From a virus (taxonomy: Duplodnaviria; Heunggongvirae; Uroviricota; Caudoviricetes), in IMG/VR virus record IMGVR_UViG_2585427757_000009: DNA of 9,859 bases, one strand, 5' to 3'. Positions 1-9,859 of this stretch are shown in pieces (positions within the stretch are counted from its first letter, which is position 1; every line of letters begins with the position of its first letter). A program made the translations under genes and the position numbers. Below the pieces are notes generated by a model. It searched no databases and was not told where the DNA came from. It worked only from the letters and a program-made list of their open reading frames with translations.

Positions 1-201
1 AGCCTTGCGCTTATCTTCTTTAATCTTGAAATAAAGGTTTGTCAGGTACGTCAGCAGGCCAAATACCAGGCTACCCAGCACACCTATTGCTGCCCACTGT
101 GAGGGCGTGACTTTATCGAGCAGCTGTAAAAACCAGTAACCGGCACTACCTGCTGAGGTGCCATAGGCGACACCCGTTGTTAACTTATCCATGGATTTCA
201 T
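1..201 (-). CDS. essD: Phage holin/antiholin, S21 (pinholin)-like, 5' part only; runs off the window start
   Basis: Reverse-complement of 1..201 translates [67 protein letters not shown] with no stop before the window edge. Two in-frame ATGs (201 and 192) give the dual-start MKSM motif. GAGGTGGGG Shine-Dalgarno lies upstream. Absent from the ORF track because it is truncated. Confidence 0.8.
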
Positions 202-789
202 AACCCCACCTCGCAGACAAAGCGGGTGTAAATTGAGGGAATACAACGTATCGCAAAAAAGCAGAAACGTAACAGACTCGGAGTCAGTGAATAACTCAGG
301 TATTGAGTTATCAGCTAATATCGAGACTCAAAAAATGGAAAAACCAGCTCGACGGCGGGTTTAAGCTGTGTGACGAAGTAACCACTCTTAACAGCATAAC
401 CAATTTTTTACGTACGTAAACCACTGAATGATATTTATGAGAATGCTACCGAGTGTTCAAAACACCACCACAAATACATAAGAAAACCTCAACAAATAAC
501 CAATAAATAATTTCCGGCGTTATTTTTAGTTAATTTAAATTAAACCATCGAATTATAGCCCCCCCATAAATAACAGCCATTAATATAAATTAGCTAATAG
601 GTTTATTTTTGTTCAAATAAGAGCCATAAATAGGTTTCGATAGAAAAAGTTCAGATAAAAATAGAGATCTACTTCACAAATTAAATGAGAAACTAAAACT
701 TACATCTTGAAATAATCACATTGATTAGATGAATATTTATCGCGCAGTGACATCATTTTTTAATAATAGTTCAAAAAAAAGGGCTCACG

Positions 790-1872
790 ATGAAAAAATT
801 AACAGTGGCAATTTCTGCTGTAGCTGCATCAGTACTGATGGCGATGTCTGCTCAGGCAGCTGAAATTTATAATAAAGACAGTAACAAGCTGGATCTGTAC
901 GGGAAAGTTAATGCTAAGCACTACTTCTCCTCTAATGATGCAGATGATGGTGATACTACTTATGCCCGTCTTGGCTTCAAAGGTGAAACCCAAATCAACG
1001 ATCAACTGACTGGTTTCGGTCAGTGGGAATATGAATTCAAAGGCAACCGCGCTGAATCTCAAGGTTCCTCCAAAGATAAAACCCGTCTTGCCTTCGCTGG
1101 CCTGAAATTCGGTGACTACGGCTCCATCGATTACGGCCGTAACTACGGTGTAGCATACGACATCGGTGCGTGGACTGACGTCCTGCCAGAATTCGGTGGT
1201 GACACTTGGACTCAAACAGATGTGTTCATGACTGGTCGCACCACTGGTGTTGCAACTTATCGTAACAACGACTTCTTTGGTCTGGTTGATGGTCTGAACT
1301 TTGCTGCTCAGTATCAGGGTAAAAATGACCGCACTGACGTAACTGAAGCTAATGGTGATGGTTTCGGTTTCTCCACTACTTATGAGTATGAAGGATTCGG
1401 TGTAGGTGCAACCTATGCTAAATCTGATCGCACTAATAATCAGGTTATCTACGGTAACAACGGTCTGAATGCTTCTGGTCAAAATGCTGAAGTATGGGCA
1501 GCTGGTCTGAAATATGATGCGAACAACATCTATCTGGCCACCACCTATTCTGAAACCCAGAACATGACTGTTTTTGGTAATAACCATATTGCCAACAAAG
1601 CACAAAACTTCGAAGCTGTTGCACAATATCAGTTCGACTTCGGCCTGCGTCCATCCGTTGCTTACCTGCATTCTAAAGGAAAAGACTTGGGTGTTTGGGG
1701 TGATCAGGACCTGGTTGAATATGTTGATGTAGGTGCAACCTATTACTTCAACAAAAATATGTCCACTTTTGTTGACTACAAAATCAACCTGATTGATAAG
1801 AGCGATTTCACGAAAGCATCTGGCGTTGCTACCGATGATATCGTTGCTGTAGGTATGGTTTACCAGTTCTAA
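790..1872 (+). CDS. nmpC: General outer-membrane porin, NmpC/Lc (OmpC/OmpF/PhoE) family, 360 aa, apparently intact
   Basis: ORF begins [23 protein letters not shown] (signal peptide, AQA-AE cleavage site) and ends with the porin C-terminal YQF. Close match from memory to the prophage-borne NmpC/Lc porin. High-expression-like codon usage. Confidence 0.9.
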
Positions 1873-1886
1873 TTTGATTACTAAAA

Positions 1887-1920
1887 GATATGTTGTGGGA
1901 GGCTTTGCCTCCCCAACATA
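1887..1920. terminator. Strong hairpin (7+8 bp stem, one bulged T) 15 nt after the porin stop; candidate porin terminator and/or tR'-like terminator on the minus strand
   Basis: atatgttgtgggaggc-ttt-gcctccccaacatat. On the minus strand it is followed by CTTTTAG; on the plus strand there is no T-tract. Confidence 0.35.
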
Positions 1921-2008
1921 TAAGTGGCTCCCTCAAGCCACTTCCTTTAGAAGCACAACCTTGCTTCTAACTATACAAACCTTCTGTTATATATTACCCT
2001 TTATTTTT

Positions 2009-2033
2009 GGGGGCGTTTCAACGCCCCATTTTT
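2009..2033 (+). terminator. Rho-independent terminator (plus strand)
   Basis: GGGGCG (2010-2015), loop tttcaa, CGCCCC (2022-2027), followed by ATTTTT (2028-2033). On the minus strand the stem is followed by an A-run, so it is plus-strand specific. Confidence 0.5.
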
Positions 2034-2060
2034 AATAACTTTTAGTAAATAATTGGCGTA

Positions 2061-2444
2061 TTAATTAGAGTTATTAACAACGATATCCATCTCTAACCGG
2101 ATATCTAATGCCATTAACATCCCTTCAATTATGCCCTCAGCCTTTTGTAACCTTTTCCCGATATAACCATCAGAGCAGCAATGCTTACCTGCCAGTGACA
2201 TGAATGTCATACCGACTACATAATAATCTACTAATAAATCGTGCAAATCGCTGTTGTTCTTTTTCAGACGGGCCATGCACCCGCAAATGATCATCGCGTC
2301 ATCGTCACAACATTGCGGGCGAGATTTTACTTTTGAAGGAATTAATCCCTTAAAACCGGCGGCAATGGACGACCAGGTCACATCTTCATGATTATTAGCC
2401 GCCCACGCTCCCCAACGCTCAAGAACCATCTGAATATCACGCAT
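2061..2444 (-). CDS. quuD: Late-gene antiterminator Q-like protein, 127 aa
   Basis: Track ORF 2061..2459 begins with a TTG-initiated MWSKL extension; the internal ATG at 2444 gives [24 protein letters not shown]..., matching my recollection of DLP12 QuuD. Sits between the nin genes and the lysis gene, as expected for Q. Confidence 0.85.
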
Positions 2445-2522
2445 CAACTTACTCCACAAAAATCAGACCAGAACGCCAATTACAAGCAACAAAACAGTAT
2501 TAGTTGATTGTTATCTCTGACT

Positions 2523-2645
2523 TCATACTCCTGCTCCTGTCAGGGTTTTGGCGTAATTCTTCAGTATTCGGTAATCGGTCAAAACAGAACCGGGGAAACG
2601 ATATAAGCGCAGACGCCCCCAGCGGTGGCGAAGAAGTTCTGCCAT
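2523..2645 (-). CDS. Small hypothetical ORF (40 aa) in the ylcG position between rusA and quuD; homology not verified
   Basis: ATG at 2645 to TGA at 2523-2525; translation MAELLRHRWGRLRLYRFPGSVLTDYRILKNYAKTLTGAGV. Positional analogy only; below the ORF-track length cutoff. Confidence 0.25.
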   Translation of the reverse strand: MAELLRHRWGRLRLYRFPGSVLTDYRILKNYAKTLTGAGV

Positions 2646-2659
2646 ATTAAACTCAAACA

Positions 2660-3022
2660 TCATTCATTCCCCATTTCGGTGATGGTCAGTTCCAGCCTCC
2701 CACCTTTGGTAACAGGCATCTTCACAACGCGGTAATCAACGACCTGAGCATCATCCAGCCAGAAACCTGCTTTAGTGAGTGCGTCAAAAGCGGCTTTTTG
2801 CAGATTATCCAGGTCACGGCGACGGCGATCCGGCATGTAGCACTCAATGCGGATTTTCACAGGCATAGCCAGGCCGATATCCAGCATTGCGTTTTTAATG
2901 ATTCGGGCGACGTTATCGCGGTATGCCTGCCCCTCTGCGCTGACGTGCGTGCGCCCGCGATTATGGCGGTAATAGCGATTATTGCTCGGAGGCCAGGGTA
3001 ATGTGATGCTGTAGGTATTCAC
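2660..3022 (-). CDS. rusA: Holliday-junction resolvase RusA, 120 aa
   Basis: [120 protein letters not shown] matches RusA. GTG start overlapping the ybcO stop (GTGA). Confidence 0.9.
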
Positions 3023-3309
3023 GCCTTAATAACCCCCTCTTTCAGCCAGATAACCTGTGTTCTCGCCATACCTTCCAGCGCGCATTCTTTTGCATATGCA
3101 GCATCGACAAAATGTGTGCGGCGGTCGATTTCGTCGTGGCAGGCAGAACATGCAATGGTGGCAATCAGGTCTGGCGGTTTGGTACCGGTGCCGCACAATC
3201 CAGTCAGCCGGATATGTGCCAGTACAGACGTTTCAGGGTTGCCATTACATACGCCAGGGATTCTTACCTGGCATTCCCGACTACGCGCTGCTTTTCTCAA
3301 ATCAGCCAT
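3019..3309 (-). CDS. ybcO: YbcO-like prophage protein (putative zinc-binding nuclease), 96 aa
   Basis: Internal ATG at 3309 gives [66 protein letters not shown]...; GGAGGA Shine-Dalgarno just upstream. The 13-codon N-terminal extension in the track ORF (to 3348) is probably not used. Confidence 0.8.
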
Positions 3310-3472
3310 GATTCCTCCTTGCTGCCAGTCGCAACCATTTTTTATCAACCAGGCTGGCGGTATATCCGAGCAGTGTTGGTATTTCGGAAGGCTTCAGCTC
3401 CGGTTTACGCTTACGACGATTTGGTACTCTGTAGATGTGTCCGTTCATGACACGAATAAGCGGTGTAGCCAT
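3302..3472 (-). CDS. ninE: NinE, 56 aa
   Basis: Hand translation from ATG (3472-3470): [56 protein letters not shown], stop TGA at 3302-3304. Start overlaps the ybcN stop (TAATG); end overlaps the ybcO start. Below the ORF-track cutoff. Confidence 0.8.
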   Translation of the reverse strand: MATPLIRVMNGHIYRVPNRRKRKPELKPSEIPTLLGYTASLVDKKWLRLAARRNHG

Positions 3473-3927
3473 TACGCCTCCTGTTTGTCGCGGAGCTGCT
3501 GGAACTCGCAGCTCTGCGGAATAGTCAGGTGGCAGCCAATATTCATCGCCCAGGCTTCAACCTTACACAGGAAGACATACATCTCTCCGGTATCAAGATC
3601 GGAGGTATGGCGTAACGACTGGATAGTGGTGATATCACCGGTTACGACATCAACCAGGTCTTTGGTTTCATAACCGAGATATGTGTGTTTGAGAGCATCT
3701 TTTACCCAAGCTGGAGTGGCGAACGTTTTACCCTTGCTGATGAGGTATTCACTGATTTCGCTGTACCACATGTGGCTGAGTGCATTCTGGGAAAGACTGC
3801 GTCTCTCGCGCCACGGTTTAAGCACCATGCGAAAGCATTTGCCCTCCTCCAGATAAGGCTGGATCTGCCGACCGATAGCGGTGAAGTTACCGCGATGCAA
3901 TTTGATACCATCTTGTGGGAGGTTCAC
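3472..3927 (-). CDS. ybcN: YbcN-like nin-region protein, 151 aa
   Basis: [66 protein letters not shown]... with GTG start at 3927 preceded by GGAGGT. Conserved order ybcN-ninE-ybcO-rusA. Confidence 0.8.
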
Positions 3928-4046
3928 GCTTCACCTCCGCAGAGATCAAACGCTGGATGCAAAATATCGCAGGTGCATTTCTGCATCTGTGAATGGAGAA
4001 GAGAGGTTGGATTGTATGTGCGCATAAACGTCCCCGTTTAGCGCAG

Positions 4047-4079
4047 AAGTCACCGGAGGAGTTCAAACTCCGGTGACTT
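4047..4079. repeat. Perfect 12-bp inverted repeat / hairpin with 9-nt loop, between the HNH-gene stop and the ybcN start
   Basis: aagtcaccggag (4047-4058), loop gagttcaaa, ctccggtgactt (4068-4079). No clear U-tract on either strand. Confidence 0.5.
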
Positions 4080-4119
4080 AATTATGGCAAGTTGATTGTT
4101 GAAAATCAATTTAGTGGAT

Positions 4120-4902
4120 TTAGGCGCAATACAAAGGATCATTAGCAGCTCTAATACCGCCCTGAATCGCAAGCCCTGTATGGCAATTTGACATTGAGCA
4201 TGATTGCCATCTGTGCAAGGGACCTCCATTAATCGAAACTTCCAGCAGATCTTTATCTCCTTTCATCCTGACCCCTTCATACAACATATCAAGACGCTCA
4301 ACAATCAATCCTGTTGGAGGTTCCATTTTTAGAACGAGGGCAAACTCTCCTGGCCCACGTCGTATTGTTATACGCGGGCCGGTACACTCCACATCCCAAT
4401 TGTCTGATTTAGCTTTCCATTCATTTTCATCTATCAGTAAAGTCTCCTTACCAATAGAATTACAGAAAATTCCTGATAAAAGCATCGGTCCATGTGGTAT
4501 GGGTGAAGGTTTCACAGAAAGAATGGGTTGTTCGTTGACTACAATCAAATTTTGACAGTTATGAAACGTCACTCCTGCAAATTTTACTGTTATAGGCTCA
4601 TTATGAAAATCAAACATTTCATTTGCAAAACCAGCCTGTAAGCACTTGGGATTTCTGTCAGCTATTTCCACTGTCTGTGCTGAAAGTCTACCACGAGCTC
4701 TTTTTTGATTGCATTGGGAGCAAAGAAGTGTCATTCCATTCGGATCATGTACTTTGGCATCAACGAAGTCAGGTTTAAAATGCTCATAATCATAAAATCC
4801 AAATCCACAAATTACACAGCCAAAGCCGCACCTTTGCCTTATCTGACGTTTTATTGTCTCAGGTATTCTTCTTGAGAGCCCGTGTTTATTAATATTGTCC
4901 AT
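4120..4902 (-). CDS. Hypothetical protein, 260 aa, N-terminal HNH (beta-beta-alpha-Me) nuclease motif with CxxC...CxxC zinc ribbon; C-terminal ~185 aa of unknown fold
   Basis: ATG at 4902. Residues ~25-70, CGFGCVICGFGFYDYEHFKPDFVDAKVHDPNGMTLLCSQCNQKRARG, fit the HNH consensus (CxxC, E/D-H, P, N, CxxCN, K). Visibly lower GC than the flanking nin genes. Confidence 0.6.
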   Translation of the reverse strand: MDNINKHGLSRRIPETIKRQIRQRCGFGCVICGFGFYDYEHFKPDFVDAKVHDPNGMTLLCSQCNQKRARGRLSAQTVEIADRNPKCLQAGFANEMFDFHNEPITVKFAGVTFHNCQNLIVVNEQPILSVKPSPIPHGPMLLSGIFCNSIGKETLLIDENEWKAKSDNWDVECTGPRITIRRGPGEFALVLKMEPPTGLIVERLDMLYEGVRMKGDKDLLEVSINGGPLHRWQSCSMSNCHTGLAIQGGIRAANDPLYCA

Positions 4903-5032
4903 ATGGTTAGTACGCTATAAGTTTGTTTCTATAATTTTACCACAATAGATAAGTTTGTATCAGAAATCGCTATATGGAGTGAGCGGAATATTTATATTAT
5001 TCATGCAATTGCTCTCCCGTACGCAGCCCGCA

Positions 5033-5058
5033 CTTCCGTCATCGCAGAATGACGGAAG
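5033..5058. repeat. Perfect 10-bp inverted repeat with 6-nt spacer, 19 nt 3' of the 107-aa ORF
   Basis: cttccgtcat (5033-5042), cgcaga, atgacggaag (5049-5058). No adjacent U-tract. Confidence 0.5.
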
Positions 5059-5076
5059 CCTTACTAACTAGCGCCT

Positions 5077-5400
5077 TTATTGAAACAGATTCTGAGGTAA
5101 ATGCGGCAATACTCGACTCCACTTATCATCCTGCCACGGCTGAAGTTTTACATGTGCCGTTTCTCGGACGAGGATTGCTCGCGCTCTGTTGAGTATCTGG
5201 GGATATTCTTGCTCGATAGAAGTGAAGCGACCAGCTTCACGATGCTCCGCAACCTGAAGAAGAGGAGTAACGTTCTGGTAGGTAATTAACATCACATTCC
5301 CTGCTCGCCATAACCAGGCGAGTGTGCAAAGTTCGTTATCAGTGAATTGTTTTGTGATTGGGGATTGTTGAACTGCTAGAACGAGAACGCCAGCATCCAT
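5077..5400 (-). CDS. Hypothetical protein, 107 aa, no recognisable family
   Basis: ATG-initiated ORF MDAGVLVLAVQQSPITKQFTDNELCTLAWLWRAGNVMLITYQ... between the ybcK-like gene and the HNH gene, same strand. Coding status unproven. Confidence 0.35.
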   Translation of the reverse strand: MDAGVLVLAVQQSPITKQFTDNELCTLAWLWRAGNVMLITYQNVTPLLQVAEHREAGRFTSIEQEYPQILNRARAILVRETAHVKLQPWQDDKWSRVLPHLPQNLFQ

Positions 5401-5511
5401 TGGCAGTCCCTATAGTAAAACCATAGCTCAGGACGCTTCGTTCAGGATAGATAATTTTATTGTACTTACCTAACTTTCTTACTATAGCACGGTTGAAAAA
5501 GTGATTATTAC

Positions 5512-7038
5512 TCAAAAATAAACCTCACCATCAACCATATATTTGAGAGCACTTATCGCCTGCTGGGCGGATATTACTTTCATTAAAGGATAGTGTTTAA
5601 AAACAATGCCATTCATAAAATAGATATCACAGGTTTTATTATCCGTATTAATTATGATTTTTTCGAATGTTTTATAGGCAAGTGTACGGCATAACTCTCG
5701 TCCATTTTTACTGGTTAAGTCAATAGCATAAAAATCACTGAATGAATTTACACCTTTACTCTTCAAAGTTTTCAATGATACCGAAGCCCTTCTTAATTCC
5801 TTATCTAATAGTCTTATTTTCTCTGCTATAGCGGTAACTTCAGGCGCGACAGACAATGCAACGATTAAATTATTAATTTTCATCTGAAGCTCAATAATTT
5901 TTAACTCTAAAGTTTCATTAGCATCTTTCTTGTTTTCAACTGGTTGAATTTTGCTACAATTAAAAAGCAATTCATTAATGATATTATAATCAACCAAATC
6001 TCTTTTTATTGATGGCCTGTCACATCGATGTAATCTTCTCATCGGACAAACATAATAGCCATGCAAACTTCCAGATACCGCATGAACAATCATGGTATTA
6101 CCACAAGCCTCACACTTCATAACTGTTCGAAGTAGATTTATTAGCATAGGATTCTTGCTACTATTGCTAATACCAAAAGGTGCCAACCGAATTTCCTGTA
6201 CAGCGTAAAACAAATCATCTGATATGACTCTGGGATAATAGCCAGCGATTTCACTTATCCCTTTCCCTCTTGCACGATATGAAGGTACGCATATACCTAT
6301 CAGAGCTTTATTCGCTAATAATTTTTCAATTACAGAAGGTCCCCATGCACTTTCTTTTCCTGAGAAATTCTTTACAGCATGATCATTTAAATACTTGGCT
6401 ATTGCATTCAATGAGCGCCTTTCCATCCTGAGTTTAAAAATTAGCTCAATAGTTTTCACCCTGTCGGGGTCTGGAACAAAACCCGTTCTTTTGTCATCTA
6501 AGGAGAGCCATCTCGGACAAGACGCCGTCATAATCGTACCTGATTCCAGTGCATCCTGCCGTTTTTTCTTCCATGATAATTTAACCCGACTTGACTTTAT
6601 CTCGCTTTCTTCATTTGCCCTTTGTGCTATAAGTATGGCTTTTATTAATGAATATGGCTCATTCAAAGAGTCAATATTATAGACTGTATTGTCGCAAAGA
6701 GTTATAACATCAATACCGTGATTCAAAATCAATTTCAGACGTTCAATCGCTTCACCGACTTTTTCTCTTGAAAGTCTGTCCAGACTTTCAACTAACAATG
6801 TAGTTCCTGGCAATATATAACCATGCTCTATAGCATCTAAAAATTCCGAAAAAGCTCCTGATTGTGCATGCTTTCCTTTGAATGCACTTAATCCTAAATC
6901 TTCATATGTTATGGTATCAAGATAATAATCACTATTTACCTTTAACCATTCAGCAATAAGTCTTCTCTGTCGGTTTAATGAGTCACCAGACATCTGACCT
7001 GGTGATGAAAATCGCATATATGCTATGGCTTTTTTCAT
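5512..7038 (-). CDS. ybcK: Large serine recombinase family protein, 508 aa, YbcK-like
   Basis: N-terminus AIAYMRFSSPGQ...SLNRQ and LLVESLDRLSR match resolvase catalytic motifs. Cys-rich segment CEACGNTMIVHAVSGSLHGYYVCPMRRLHRCD fits the zinc ribbon of large serine recombinases, followed by a coiled-coil-like C-terminus. Strongly AT-rich by eye. Confidence 0.85.
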   Translation of the reverse strand: MKKAIAYMRFSSPGQMSGDSLNRQRRLIAEWLKVNSDYYLDTITYEDLGLSAFKGKHAQSGAFSEFLDAIEHGYILPGTTLLVESLDRLSREKVGEAIERLKLILNHGIDVITLCDNTVYNIDSLNEPYSLIKAILIAQRANEESEIKSSRVKLSWKKKRQDALESGTIMTASCPRWLSLDDKRTGFVPDPDRVKTIELIFKLRMERRSLNAIAKYLNDHAVKNFSGKESAWGPSVIEKLLANKALIGICVPSYRARGKGISEIAGYYPRVISDDLFYAVQEIRLAPFGISNSSKNPMLINLLRTVMKCEACGNTMIVHAVSGSLHGYYVCPMRRLHRCDRPSIKRDLVDYNIINELLFNCSKIQPVENKKDANETLELKIIELQMKINNLIVALSVAPEVTAIAEKIRLLDKELRRASVSLKTLKSKGVNSFSDFYAIDLTSKNGRELCRTLAYKTFEKIIINTDNKTCDIYFMNGIVFKHYPLMKVISAQQAISALKYMVDGEVYF

Positions 7039-7237
7039 GGTGACACCTGCTAACGTATGCTTTTATAAACCTTAGTGGCGGGATATAATTTTTTTTTAAT
7101 TTTTATTTAAAAAAACAATTAAGGTCACATTATCTTGAATATACAACAATAATCGTATTGCAATTTTCTTACGCCATAATCTTGAAAGCACAAAAGAACA
7201 CATAAAAAAATAAAGACATTAACAAAAAGCATAAAAC

Positions 7238-7263
7238 GAGGCTCATATAAATATAAGAGCCTC
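7238..7263 (-). terminator. Candidate rho-independent terminator of emrE
   Basis: 7-bp stem gaggctc (7238-7244) / gagcctc (7257-7263) with 12-nt loop. On the minus strand it is followed by GTTTTATGCTTTTTGTT, about 30 nt after the emrE stop. Confidence 0.45.
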
Positions 7264-7294
7264 CATATTTTAGTCGTTTAGAAACAAATTATTT

Positions 7295-7627
7295 TTAATG
7301 TGGTGTGCTTCGTGACAATAGATTAATAACCAACACACCGGCACAAATTAACATCATGCCTATAATGGCTGGCAGGTCCAGCCGTTGGCCGAAAAGTCCC
7401 CATGACAGTAAGCTAATCAGGACAATACCGACTCCTGACCAGATAGCATAAGCAATCCCTGTAGGAATATAAGCCAGCGTCTGAGCTAATAACCAGAATG
7501 ATGCACAATAACAAATAATTGTACCAACAGATGGCCATAACCGTGTAAAACCTTCTGAAAACTTCATTAAGGTTGTACCAATGACCTCTGCAAGTATTGC
7601 ACCACCAAGATAAATATAAGGGTTCAT
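7295..7627 (-). CDS. emrE: Small multidrug resistance (SMR) efflux transporter EmrE, 110 aa
   Basis: Internal ATG at 7627 gives MNPYIYLGGAILAEVIGTTLMKFSEGFTRLWPSVGTIICYCASFWLLAQTLAYIPTGIAYAIWSGVGIVLISLLSWG...LSRSTPH. AGGAAAG Shine-Dalgarno upstream. The track ORF extends 18 codons further, probably spuriously. Confidence 0.95.
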   Translation of the reverse strand: MNPYIYLGGAILAEVIGTTLMKFSEGFTRLWPSVGTIICYCASFWLLAQTLAYIPTGIAYAIWSGVGIVLISLLSWGLFGQRLDLPAIIGMMLICAGVLVINLLSRSTPH

Positions 7628-7642
7628 AGCATATTCTTTCCT

Positions 7643-7677
7643 GTTCAAACTGGAGAGAATTGTACTACAGTTTGAAC
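7643..7677. repeat. Perfect 10-bp inverted repeat with 15-bp spacer, between the ren stop and the emrE Shine-Dalgarno
   Basis: gttcaaactg (7643-7652) and cagtttgaac (7668-7677). Confidence 0.5.
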
Positions 7678-7694
7678 TCAACTCACCTGTTTCA

Positions 7695-7996
7695 TCATTG
7701 TGTACCCATTGATGTTCTTTTATATACCCTCAATACCCGTTTCATCGCGGCACTCTGGCGACACTCCTTAAAAATCAGATTCGTGCTCACCTTTCCTTCC
7801 CGTTCTTCTCTGGTAGCGAACCGGTAATACACCGTTCGCCAGACCTTACCATCAACGACCAGGATTCCTGCCCGGCCATTTTAGCCGCAGCCTGATTTAT
7901 GCTGGTTACGGTTGCGCCTGTTACCGCGGCAACGTCCTGCGCACAGAAGTTCTTATGAGTCCCCAGGTAATGAATAATTGCCTCTTTGCCCGTCAT
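7695..7996 (-). pseudogene. ren: ren-like gene disrupted by an apparent 1-nt deletion (frameshift) near 7871-7876
   Basis: The ATG frame at 7996 gives MTGKEAIIHYLGTHKNFCAQDVAAVTGATVTSINQAAAKMA (lambda Ren-like), then leaves frame. A contiguous second frame encodes GILVVDGKVWRTVYYRFATREEREGKVSTNLIFKECRQSAAMKRVL..., stop at 7695-7697, also Ren-like. Start overlaps the P stop. Confidence 0.65.
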
Positions 7997-8694
7997 ACAC
8001 TTGCTCCTTTCAGCCCAAACTTAGCTTTGATTTCTGCGATCTTCGCCAGAGCCTGTGCACGATTTAGAGGTCTACCGCCCATGACAGGAAGTTGTTTTAC
8101 TGGTTCAGGTATAGCCTCACCACGGTTAATTCGCGCGATCATACAGGACAGTTCATCGGCAGCCTTGCGCCGTAATTCCGCGTCAGTCAGCGCATTGGCT
8201 CGCATGTTCTGGTACAGGTTGGTAACCAGCCAGTAGTGCGCGTTTGATTTCCACGGATAAGACTCTGCATCCGGATACAGCCCGCGCTTCCGGCAATACT
8301 CGTAAACCATATCAACCAGCTCGCTGGCGTTTGGCAGCCCGGCGGTAACGGATGCTTCTTCCCGGCACCAGGCGACAAACTGCCCGGGTGATGGCAGGAA
8401 TGGTCGATTCTGCCGACGGGCTACGCGCATTCCTGCGTTAACCTGTTCCATTGTGGTGATCCCGTTTTCCCGGAAAGCCAGAACCCACTGGCGGCGGATT
8501 TCGTTCAGTTCATTCTGGTCACGGTTAGCCAGGCTCGCCGGGAAAGTTGCCAGTAACTGGCTGAACACACCGTTGATGATCTGCGCTACCTGCTGTACCT
8601 GTGGCTTTTCGTCGTACTGTTCCGGCATGTTGTTGGCGATCCGACGCATCTGCTCACAGTCAAAGTTAACCATTTGTGCGGCGATGTTTTTCAT
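7993..8694 (-). CDS. P: Lambda-type replication protein P (DnaB helicase loader), 233 aa
   Basis: MKNIAAQMVNFDCEQMRRIANNMPEQYDEKPQVQQVAQIINGVFSQLLATFPASLANRDQNE...KAKFGLKGASV is near-identical from memory to lambda P. ATGA overlap with the O stop. Confidence 0.9.
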   Translation of the reverse strand: MKNIAAQMVNFDCEQMRRIANNMPEQYDEKPQVQQVAQIINGVFSQLLATFPASLANRDQNELNEIRRQWVLAFRENGITTMEQVNAGMRVARRQNRPFLPSPGQFVAWCREEASVTAGLPNASELVDMVYEYCRKRGLYPDAESYPWKSNAHYWLVTNLYQNMRANALTDAELRRKAADELSCMIARINRGEAIPEPVKQLPVMGGRPLNRAQALAKIAEIKAKFGLKGASV

Positions 8695-9605
8695 AAATCC
8701 ACCCCATAAATCCAGTCAGTGTTTGTCAGGTCCAGTTTTGATTTTCCGGCTGTCACTCCAGCCTGTTGCTTGTTACGGTTGATTTCGAGTTGGGTCCACT
8801 TGTCACGGAGTTTGGCCGGACTTAGCACGTTACCGGACCAGAAGTTGTCCTGGCATGCCCAGCGGAACAGCACGCACATGTCGCGGTGGTTACGTCCGTC
8901 ACGTTCACGCATCAGGCGGATATCGTTAGCCCACCCTGCAAAATTCGGTTTTCTGGCTGATGGCGCGATGGTCTTCACCATGTCAAACATCCACTCTGCG
9001 GCGGTCAGGTCTTCTGCTGTCCCCCACTTGCTGCCGCTCTGAATTGCAGCATCCGGTTTCACCACAGGAAGATCGTTTTCTGGTTGGTCAGAGGATTCGC
9101 CAGAATTCTCGGACGAAAAAGGTTTTATATTGTCTTTTGTTAGTTTGTCTTTTGTGTTTACCTGATTCGGGTAAACGCCTTTACCTGATTTGGGTAAACT
9201 TTTTTTACCTGATTCAGGTAAATTTACCTCTTTCAGGTAAACTTTATTTTTCTTACCTGATTCGGGTAATGTTGACCATTCACTGACCACATTATTAATG
9301 CCGGTATTCCGCCCGCTCTGAATAAAAATCCCACGCTTTACCAGAACACTTTTTGCAGCAGAACACTTGTGCGGCAATATCCCGGTTAATTCGGAAAGTT
9401 GCTCGTTGCTAACCCAATCCAGTTTTTTATTAAAGCCATATGTTTTGCGCATGACAGCCAGAAAGACCAGAAGCTGGTGCTGTGTTAATCCGGCCAGCAT
9501 CACAGCTTCCAGCAACTCATTTGCAATGCGCGTATAACCATCATTGTCAGCGCCAATGATATAAGACAGTAATTCACCATTTGGATTGTCCGCTCCACCC
9601 AACAT
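8691..9605 (-). CDS. O: Lambdoid replication initiator O, 304 aa; lambda-like C-terminal (P-interaction) domain, divergent N-terminal iteron-binding domain
   Basis: C-terminus ...DNFWSGNVLSPAKLRDKWTQLEINRNKQQAGVTAGKSKLDLTNTDWIYGVDL is lambda-O-like. N-terminal region (NDGYTRIANELLEA...) has O architecture but different sequence. Iterons lie inside the gene. Confidence 0.85.
   Translation of the reverse strand: MLGGADNPNGELLSYIIGADNDGYTRIANELLEAVMLAGLTQHQLLVFLAVMRKTYGFNKKLDWVSNEQLSELTGILPHKCSAAKSVLVKRGIFIQSGRNTGINNVVSEWSTLPESGKKNKVYLKEVNLPESGKKSLPKSGKGVYPNQVNTKDKLTKDNIKPFSSENSGESSDQPENDLPVVKPDAAIQSGSKWGTAEDLTAAEWMFDMVKTIAPSARKPNFAGWANDIRLMRERDGRNHRDMCVLFRWACQDNFWSGNVLSPAKLRDKWTQLEINRNKQQAGVTAGKSKLDLTNTDWIYGVDL
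9158..9269. repeat. Replication origin iterons: five copies of a ~17-bp dyad-symmetric repeat (consensus TTACCTGATTCGGGTAA) inside O, flanked by an AT-rich stretch (9121-9157)
   Basis: Copies at 9158-9174, 9181-9197, 9205-9221, 9224-9240 (variant) and 9253-9269, each with TTACC/GGTAA inverted ends. The iterons encode the repeated LPESGKK linker of O. Confidence 0.75.
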
Positions 9606-9859
9606 GTTGTTTCCTTAAGGTTCCTACACCACAAAGGGAACACTCATGCTGAGCAGAGAGGATTTTTACATGATAAAGCAAATGCGCCAGCAAGGTGCGT
9701 ATATTGTTGATATTGCCACTCAGGTTGGTTGCTCTGAGCGGACCGTCAGACGGTACCTGAAATACCCGGAACCTCCGGCCAGAAAAACACGCCACAAAAT
9801 GGCCAAACTCAAGCCGTTCATGGACTATATAGATATGCGTCTGGCTGAGAACGTCTGGA
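9606..9859 (+). mobile_element. Left end of an IS21-family insertion sequence (IS100-like), partial; exact terminus not mapped (about 9600-9645)
   Basis: istA-like ORF begins at 9646. The preceding ~40 bp carries repeated GTTCC/GGAAC motifs and starts with TGT (9606), as expected for an IS21-family end. Runs off the window. Confidence 0.6.
9646..9859 (+). CDS. istA: IS21-family transposase IstA, N-terminal 71 codons only (truncated by window end)
   Basis: Hand translation MLSREDFYMIKQMRQQGAYIVDIATQVGCSERTVRRYLKYPEPPARKTRHKMAKLKPFMDYIDMRLAENVW, with an N-terminal helix-turn-helix; matches the IS100/IS21 IstA N-terminus from memory. AAGGGA Shine-Dalgarno upstream. Absent from the ORF track because no stop lies within the window. 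Confidence 0.8.
   Translation, partial: MLSREDFYMIKQMRQQGAYIVDIATQVGCSERTVRRYLKYPEPPARKTRHKMAKLKPFMDYIDMRLAENVW

Follow-up and report, generated by a model that had tools for sequence, protein, structure and literature searches.

The window, that is the whole 9,859-bp stretch of DNA analysed here, carries on its minus strand an O-family replication gene with the helicase loader gene P downstream of it. An array of short repeats and an AT-rich tract lie inside O, and the 5' end of the gene is interrupted by the left end of an insertion sequence. The features are listed below in order of position, the repeats (iterons) being numbered in the reading direction of O.

7993..8694, minus strand: gene P, helicase loader (Phage_lambda_P, E 9e-62), downstream of O
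8691..9605, minus strand: ORF of 304 aa (Pfam Phage_rep_O, E 6e-31)
8691..9544, minus strand: native O coding sequence, 5'-truncated, lacking the first 76 nt counted from a lambda-like start (MANTAEIF)
8691..9116, minus strand: C-terminal domain of O, lambda-type; in lambda this part interacts with P
9088..9113, given in O sense: imperfect palindrome, TCCGAGAATTCTGGCGAATCCTCTGA, one base different from its lambda counterpart to the right of the AT tract
9121..9156, minus strand: AT-rich tract, presumed unwinding element, 72% AT, A-rich on the O-sense strand
9157..9175, iteron 5: TTTACCCGAATCAGGTAAA, codon phase 2 (VYPNQVN), adjoining the AT-rich tract
9180..9198, iteron 4: TTTACCCAAATCAGGTAAA, codon phase 0 (LPKSGK)
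9204..9222, iteron 3: TTTACCTGAATCAGGTAAA, codon phase 0 (LPESGK), a perfect palindrome
9223..9241, iteron 2: TTTACCTGAAAGAGGTAAA, codon phase 2 (VYLKEVN), with the most divergent centre
9252..9270, iteron 1: ATTACCCGAATCAGGTAAG, codon phase 0 (LPESGK)
9276..9542, minus strand: type-specific N-domain of O, predicted winged helix, native residues 27-115 (Pfam Phage_rep_O)
9545..9605, minus strand: 20 IS-derived codons including the ATG (9605), the false N-terminus of the 304-aa ORF
9545..9859, plus strand: left end of ISEc62 (IS21 family), TGTCAGCGCC..., istA starting at 9646; the element continues beyond the window

Read in the direction of O (minus strand), the order of elements is N-domain, iterons, AT tract and C-domain. 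Comparison with lambda O gave an amino acid identity of 47% for the N-domain and 28% for the linker encoded by the iterons and AT tract, versus 97.9% (138 of 141 residues) for the C-domain; P was 97.4% identical to lambda P (227/233). A type-specific N-domain is here joined to a separate C-domain matched to the downstream partner gene, as in lambdoid origins generally. The first-pass annotation, prepared from the sequence alone, had described a divergent O N-terminus and a lambda-like C-terminus. This contrast holds for the native protein, but part of the 'divergent' end is IS sequence. At the DNA level, identity to lambda was about 50% across the N-domain and iterons, climbed within the AT tract and stayed at 90% or more from about position 9125 to the stop codon, which places a mosaic boundary just after the last iteron.

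Repeats and AT-rich tract within gene O

The array at 9157-9270 consists of five dyad-symmetric repeats of 19 bp (17-19 bp), TTTACCYGAATCAGGTAAA, whose starts lie 23, 24, 19 and 29 bp apart along the plus strand. A search with the 17-mer TTACCTGATTCGGGTAA, allowing up to three mismatches, returned eight matches corresponding to the five sites, three of which were also matched on the reverse strand owing to their palindromic nature. No further site was present elsewhere in the 9,859-bp window under the same conditions. Dinucleotide shuffles gave an expectation of 0.04, and none of 200 reached eight. The motif and shuffle search thus agrees with the initial description of five ~17-bp repeats, spaced by 19-29 bp, within the O frame and beside an AT-rich segment. 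The remark that the repeat is unlike the lambda iteron was likewise correct (TTTACCYGAATCAGGTAAA against TCCCTCAAAACGAGGGA in lambda). A candidate sixth iteron at 9336-9345 was rejected, being merely a 10-bp half-match.

Spacing among the four AT-proximal copies is 19/24/23 bp, which fits the ~20/24/23 pattern of lambdoid origins. Judged against four-iteron loci of the same class (class A, see below) and against the spacing in lambda and P22, iteron 1 is the extra copy, situated 29 bp upstream of the canonical four. The variant seen in iteron 2 recurs at the same position in other class-A loci. Translation of O passes through three copies in codon phase 0 and through the other two in phase 2.

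The tract at 9121-9156 is considerably richer in AT than the O gene (53%), with A at 23 of its 36 bases on the O-sense strand, and it contains two 15-bp direct repeats (9125-9139 and 9140-9154). Its start, ACACAAAAGACA, is common to lambda, 434, P22, HK97 and KO-TP1 and absent in phi80; in the former five phages, as in Perceval, it comes after the last repeat. The motif is therefore common to several of the iteron classes compared. Origins of the oriλ type are recognised by at least three to four dyad repeats of ~18-19 bp lying between the two domains of an O-family gene, with an adjacent AT-rich tract on the C-terminal side. All of these elements were found here, and the lambda ori layout proposed initially was thereby recovered, with the repeats at the oriλ iteron position and the AT-rich tract next to them.

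The structure of O was modelled with AlphaFold on a homologue with a full-length N-terminus (P0001, 99% identical), from a 36-sequence alignment of homologous proteins, mostly contig-end fragments of at most 244 aa. The model predicted a helix-helix-helix-helix-hairpin domain at residues 25-115 (pLDDT ~90), preceded by a low-confidence tail (residues 1-24) and followed by disorder from about residue 116, in the stretch whose coding sequence holds the iterons and AT tract. Foldseek comparison with the PDB yielded weak matches, chiefly to winged-helix domains of CRP/FNR, MarR and IclR regulators; the best E value was 3.8e-3, and no match reached 1e-3. A sequence search of solved structures with O found no relative. 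The probable assignment of the N-domain as a winged helix is based mainly on the order of secondary structures in the model.

Iteron classes across the O family

Dyad-symmetric repeats were found at the same gene position, at about nucleotides 350-465, in lambda, 434, P22, HK97, phi80, KO-TP1 and Perceval. Record annotations designate the repeats of 434 and phi80 as gpO and gp15 binding sites, respectively, and place the P22 rep_origin in this region. A survey of the family was performed on one genome per species, scanned with an alignment of six N-domain types, and gave 80 loci, or about 85 with the references. This species-dereplicated scan replaced an earlier scan of viral contigs with the N-domain, whose 80 loci were 98-100% identical and of no use for comparing types. 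At each locus, the iteron was called as the dominant repeated 17-mer downstream of the conserved TYG(F/W/Y)NK motif. The following classes were named.

Class A: TTACCYGAATCAGGTAA; this window, Perceval, KO-TP1
Class B: TTTACCGAATCGGTAAA; P22
Class C: TTAGCCAAGTCAGCTAA; HK97
Class D: TCCCTCAAAACGAGGGA; lambda, 434
Class E: GTCACCAAAACAGTGAC; genome-scan loci only
Class F: GTCTCTAAGTTAGAGAC; genome-scan loci only
Class G: CGGGAAAATTTCCCG; phi80

Each N-domain lineage surveyed had its own dyad-symmetric iteron class at the same gene position. The type in the window was the nearest N-domain type for 13 non-redundant loci (66-100% core identity), all of which carried TTACCYGAATCAGGTAA, and loci with P22-type iterons encoded N-domains 69-92% identical to that of P22. 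Core start-to-start spacing was 19-20/24/23 bp in many classes, exceptions being phi80 (21/21/21) and a few other loci. Copy number within class A was 4, 5, 6 or 8, the highest value belonging to a Kluyvera locus (L092) in which eight copies derive from in-frame 48-bp units of two iterons. At least four C-terminal domains, unrelated to one another and accompanied by different partner genes downstream, were joined to the unit formed by the class-A N-domain and its iterons. The modular exchange that had been suggested to set specificity types is well reflected in these data, the iteron class tracking the N-domain lineage and the unit being combined with at least four C-terminal and partner modules. 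About ten iteron classes can thus be described by one rule, according to which an N-domain and its own dyad iterons form a single exchangeable unit. Close physical linkage would by itself suffice to keep iterons and N-domain paired; the case for function is built on the contrasts in conservation and on where the mosaic breakpoints fall.

Such contrasts were observed among five loci sharing the five-iteron layout of the window. Their N-domain DNA was 73-77% identical to that of the window, with 43-50% at third codon positions; the iterons were 89-95% identical and the spacers between them 56-74%. Fisher's test of iteron versus spacer conservation gave p values from 0.013 to 5e-5 in four of the five loci. 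Over class A as a whole, the arms TTACC/GGTAA were invariant in 63-65 of 65 copies. Iterons that are better conserved than both the surrounding coding DNA and the spacers point to a constraint on the repeats as DNA and not merely as coding sequence.

These results bear on two other readings of the array. The repeats could represent a peptide linker (LPESGKK-like) that grew through in-frame duplication, without any function as DNA sites: their sequence is coding, the segment they encode is predicted to be disordered, and copy number varies in in-frame units, such as the 48-bp units behind the eight copies of the Kluyvera locus. However, the window's copies fall into two codon phases, and a single DNA repeat thereby yields the unrelated peptides LPESGK and VYPNQVN/VYLKEVN, so that a peptide repeat cannot explain the copies. 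Moreover, every copy has dyad symmetry, for which a peptide repeat has no need, the repeat bases are conserved well above neighbouring spacers and third codon positions, and the equivalent repeats of 434 and phi80 are annotated as initiator binding sites. This explanation is accordingly very improbable. Dyads of 17-19 bp are also typical of many dimeric DNA-binding proteins, and the array might consist of sites for another protein or element (repressor operators, recombinase arm sites or transposon ends) that happen to fall within O. Against this, the repeats were found solely within O-family genes and at one fixed position, with no further copy elsewhere in the window; their class changes with the O N-domain and not with immunity, integrase or other modules, and they travel with the N-domain through several genomic contexts. 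A chance location of foreign sites in O is even harder to credit than a peptide linker. Both readings were rejected on the basis of the two phases, the dyads, the fixed position in O and the tracking of the N-domain, and the array is best regarded as a set of putative sites for the O initiator.

Relation to classical origins and proposed function

In lambda, oriλ comprises four 18-19-bp iterons (ITN1-4) and a ~38-bp AT-rich tract inside gene O (PMC3349717, PMC7466680). The window resembles it in the position within an O-family gene, the dyad repeats, the core spacing (19/24/23 versus 20/24/23 in lambda), the AT-rich tract starting with ACACAAAAGACA on the C-terminal side, the near-identical palindrome, the C-domain and P. 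It differs in its unrelated iteron sequence (lambda TCCCTCAAAACGAGGGA), in copy number (five versus four in lambda), in the N-domain, just 47% identical, and in the interruption of O by an IS. Given the unrelated iteron consensus and this low N-domain identity, the locus does not belong to the lambda specificity type (repλ).

Alignment of the iterons and N-domain with those of lambdoid phages, as the first-pass annotation had proposed, assigned the window to a separate class, A, whose closest classical relative is P22 gene 18 (51% N-domain identity over 162 aa, 63% over the core). The arms of the P22 iteron, TTTACC/GGTAAA, are identical to those of the window, and its spacing of 20/24/23 was considered the same. 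In contrast, the centre of the P22 iteron (TTTACC-GAATC-GGTAAA, 17 bp) measures 5 bp versus 7 bp in the window, which makes the P22 half-site one bp shorter. P22 has four copies, and the partner of its C-domain is a DnaB-like helicase (gene 12), not lambda P. With a 7-bp and not a 5-bp centre, and an N-domain 51-63% identical, the locus also lies outside the repP22 type. It is worth noting that class-A O and P22 gp18, whose half-site arms are alike and whose centres differ by 2 bp, offer a natural system for studying spacing specificity of initiator dimers.

The Stx phages 933W and P27 carry extra iterons on the side away from the AT tract, as does the window with its fifth, distal copy. They possess lambda-class iterons and a lambda-class N-domain (41% identical to that of the window), and they match the window in the C-terminal half of O and in P only. 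Their iterons, of lambda type, number six, and the extra AT-distal copies are required for replication in spite of their weak binding of O (PMC7466680), which provides a precedent for the fifth copy in the window.

Phage 82 has also to be considered, DLP12-type prophages being relatives of this phage. Moore, Denniston and Blattner (1981, Gene 14:91) reportedly sequenced ori82, which is said to have a lambda-like layout with repeats of its own. Class A may correspond to this classical ori82 type. A literature search for the iteron string found no paper containing it, and searches on DLP12 together with O and iterons, on the P22 gene 18 origin and on the phage 82 ori found nothing usable; iterons are not discussed in a 2025 paper on lambdoid phages (PMC12315714).

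Taken together, the comparison makes it very probable that 9121-9270 is the theta origin of a lambdoid prophage, built like oriλ and belonging to a different specificity class, in a copy whose O gene is cut and which is most likely silent in cis. The assignment as an origin is drawn from the likeness to characterised loci. The lambda system suggests how such an origin could work: dimers of O bind the iterons and bend them, forming the O-some, the AT tract opens, and the C-domain of O recruits P-DnaB (PMC7466680, PMC3349717). By analogy, each 19-bp iteron would bind a dimer of the winged-helix N-domain from the phage's own O, and the resulting O-DNA complex would unwind the AT-rich tract at 9121-9156. 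Next, P of lambda type, in complex with the DnaB helicase of the host, would be recruited by the C-domain of O, itself lambda-type. The copy in the window could fire only with an O of its own class, frequent in E. coli prophages, provided in trans.

The architecture is a textbook one; beyond that, the locus represents a very common lambdoid specificity class, orphaned in this copy by an IS. The accepted picture of lambdoid replication is unchanged and the importance of the finding is modest. It puts on record the sequence and arrangement of the iterons and the boundary of the module for a class that is apparently one of the most widespread lambdoid specificity classes in E. coli, and whose O is annotated in genome records merely as 'replication protein'.

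The ISEc62 insertion and the occurrence of class A

The phage homology of the 304-aa ORF stops at 9544 and ISEc62 begins at 9545, from where the sequence is identical to ISEc62 copies at other E. coli sites. The insertion had been missed in the earlier reading, and the first 20 codons of the ORF are IS sequence. Alignment with phage Perceval showed that native O in the window begins at residue 27 (DGYTRIANE...) of the protein with the MANTAEIF start. The contig (JNMR01000061.1, E. coli assembly GCA_000700445.1) ends within the IS, so that a single IS junction is in view. As read from this junction, ISEc62 takes the first 26 codons of O and parts the gene from the region of its promoter, and in both window and contig the IS stands where the cII/cro/repressor side would be. 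An intact cognate initiator in cis, downstream of the early rightward promoter, is therefore lacking in this copy, in which the origin DNA is intact and the O gene is cut.

A promoter scan detected no promoter-like site reading leftward from the IS end and one chance-level site, inside istA. Because O is without its start and upstream promoter region, and no above-chance promoter reads from the IS, this copy is most likely silent in cis and would be fireable only with a same-class O in trans. A different outcome would be that the chimera, made of 20 IS-derived residues and O residues 27-309, is expressed and works as an initiator, leaving the origin self-sufficient. According to the predicted fold (25-115), the insertion costs O its low-confidence tail and two residues of helix 1, the winged helix being almost wholly kept; the ATG at 9605 is preceded, at a distance of 5 nt, by a Shine-Dalgarno-like AAGGAA, and RefSeq lists the ORF as a gene. 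The lost segment nevertheless includes the family-conserved RVADLD, and its residue A23 is invariant across six divergent types. The result of the promoter scan also argues against expression, as does the ~2.1-kb IS standing between the gene and the pR region. In lambda, origin firing needs transcription through or near ori. A working chimera is on balance improbable, and silence in cis remains the preferred interpretation. The RefSeq entry in question, WP_050487766.1, labelled 'replication protein', should be treated with caution by annotators, as it is an IS-O chimera.

The closest genome is that of E. coli strain 64, in which a DLP12-like prophage matches positions 1-9544 of the window at 99.9% identity. 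Besides P and an uninterrupted O, this prophage contains genes for a porin, quuD, rusA, ybcO, ninE, ybcN, ybcK, emrE and a ren with a frameshift; beyond O come, in turn, a cII-like gene with a YdaT domain, a cro-like gene and the gene of an S24 repressor. The segment with the N-domain and iterons (9140-9544) was present in 2,422 of 5,426 complete E. coli genomes, at up to three places per genome, when counted at 80% coverage or more; almost all of these matches had at least 95% identity. The 90% cluster of the O protein had 7,825 members. Class A is among the commonest replication types in E. coli, not a rare one.

The intact origin DNA, the broken initiator and the occurrence of the class in ~45% of complete E. 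coli genomes, with at most three copies per genome, together make a trans-acting role of the orphan origin possible. A co-resident or superinfecting phage could supply same-class O and fire the origin in situ, or the origin could titrate that O and hinder the incoming phage. We regard such a role as unlikely, though conceivable; firing in situ would, if it took place, amplify the neighbouring emrE and porin cargo. Ectopic oriλ iterons are known to interfere with repλ but not with repP22 phages (PMC3349717).

Isolated phages carry the replication module at 97-100% identity, which lends its function indirect support, and the N-domain and iteron segment was found at 95% identity or more in 16 phage records, among them Perceval, 4A7, Lambda_4C10, 1W, 3W and several PhiR phages. 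Six Klebsiella phage records contained the same segment at ~79%.

Conserved and variable parts of the O-internal origin region

The AT-rich tract of the presumed origin, which lies inside the lambda-type replication initiator gene O, was found to open with ACACAAAAGACA...ACAAAAGAC, both in the window (9125-9154) and at the equivalent positions of the compared O-family loci L003-L007. This motif was common to several otherwise unrelated iteron classes, namely those of lambda, 434, P22 and HK97 as well as class A (the class of the window, Perceval and KO-TP1). Its conservation across unrelated classes suggests a class-independent role, which may for instance be that of an unwinding element or of an O-some contact.

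Iteron copy number was found to be 4, 5, 6 or 8 across class-A loci. The iteron block of L092, from Kluyvera sichuanensis, contained eight class-A iterons whose spacing alternated between 29 and 19 bp, which amounts to tandem in-frame duplication of a 48-bp unit comprising two iterons.

In the O homologues of Enterobacter sichuanensis (L093) and Klebsiella grimontii (L096), the usual place of the iterons, after the winged-helix domain and ahead of the AT tract, was taken by an inserted T5orf172 domain (Pfam E 7e-8) about 125 aa long. No iterons of class A or of class B (the P22 type) were found in these two homologues, and a few other repeats, TTYAMMCCGT..GGGAA-like, immediately preceded ACACAAAAGACA.

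about 1850-2230 (locus coordinates), T5orf172-bearing region of O in L093 and L096

Lambda-identical O loci in assemblies of unrelated taxa

O was 100% identical to that of lambda at a series of loci on genome contigs (L132, L134-L138, L140-L142 and L146-L148), which came from assemblies of unrelated taxa including Pseudomonas, Bradyrhizobium, Paenibacillus, Leeuwenhoekiella and Oceanobacillus. The contigs concerned were often of low coverage and some measured about 48.4 kb. These loci most likely represent lambda DNA contaminating sequencing libraries. Locus L149, from Ruminococcus albus, displayed the same match profile, but its short length kept it out of the iteron survey.

The ISEc62 junction and other prophage genes

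9545-9859, ISEc62 (family IS21), inserted in O
8691-9605, IS-O chimeric ORF (RefSeq WP_050487766.1, labelled 'replication protein')
4120-4902, minus, ORF of 260 aa between a ybcK-like serine recombinase and a ninB/ybcN-like gene
7787-7996, minus, ren-like ORF of only 69 aa
790-1872, plus, intact OmpC/NmpC-type porin gene, prophage cargo
7295-7681, minus, multidrug efflux gene emrE, prophage cargo

The entry WP_050487766.1 is an annotation artefact, the product of the ISEc62-O fusion; the junction was absent from every complete E. coli genome of the collection searched.

The 260-aa ORF matched no Pfam family. Judging by the cysteine pairs near the N-terminus (CGFGCVICG...CSQCN), its product may bind zinc or be HNH-like. 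The ren-like ORF was shorter than renD of phage Perceval, which measures 303 nt, and its counterpart in the strain 64 prophage, 99.9% identical to the window, was annotated as frameshifted. DLP12 likewise carries the porin gene and emrE as cargo, and emrE is also present in Perceval, where it adjoins ren and P.
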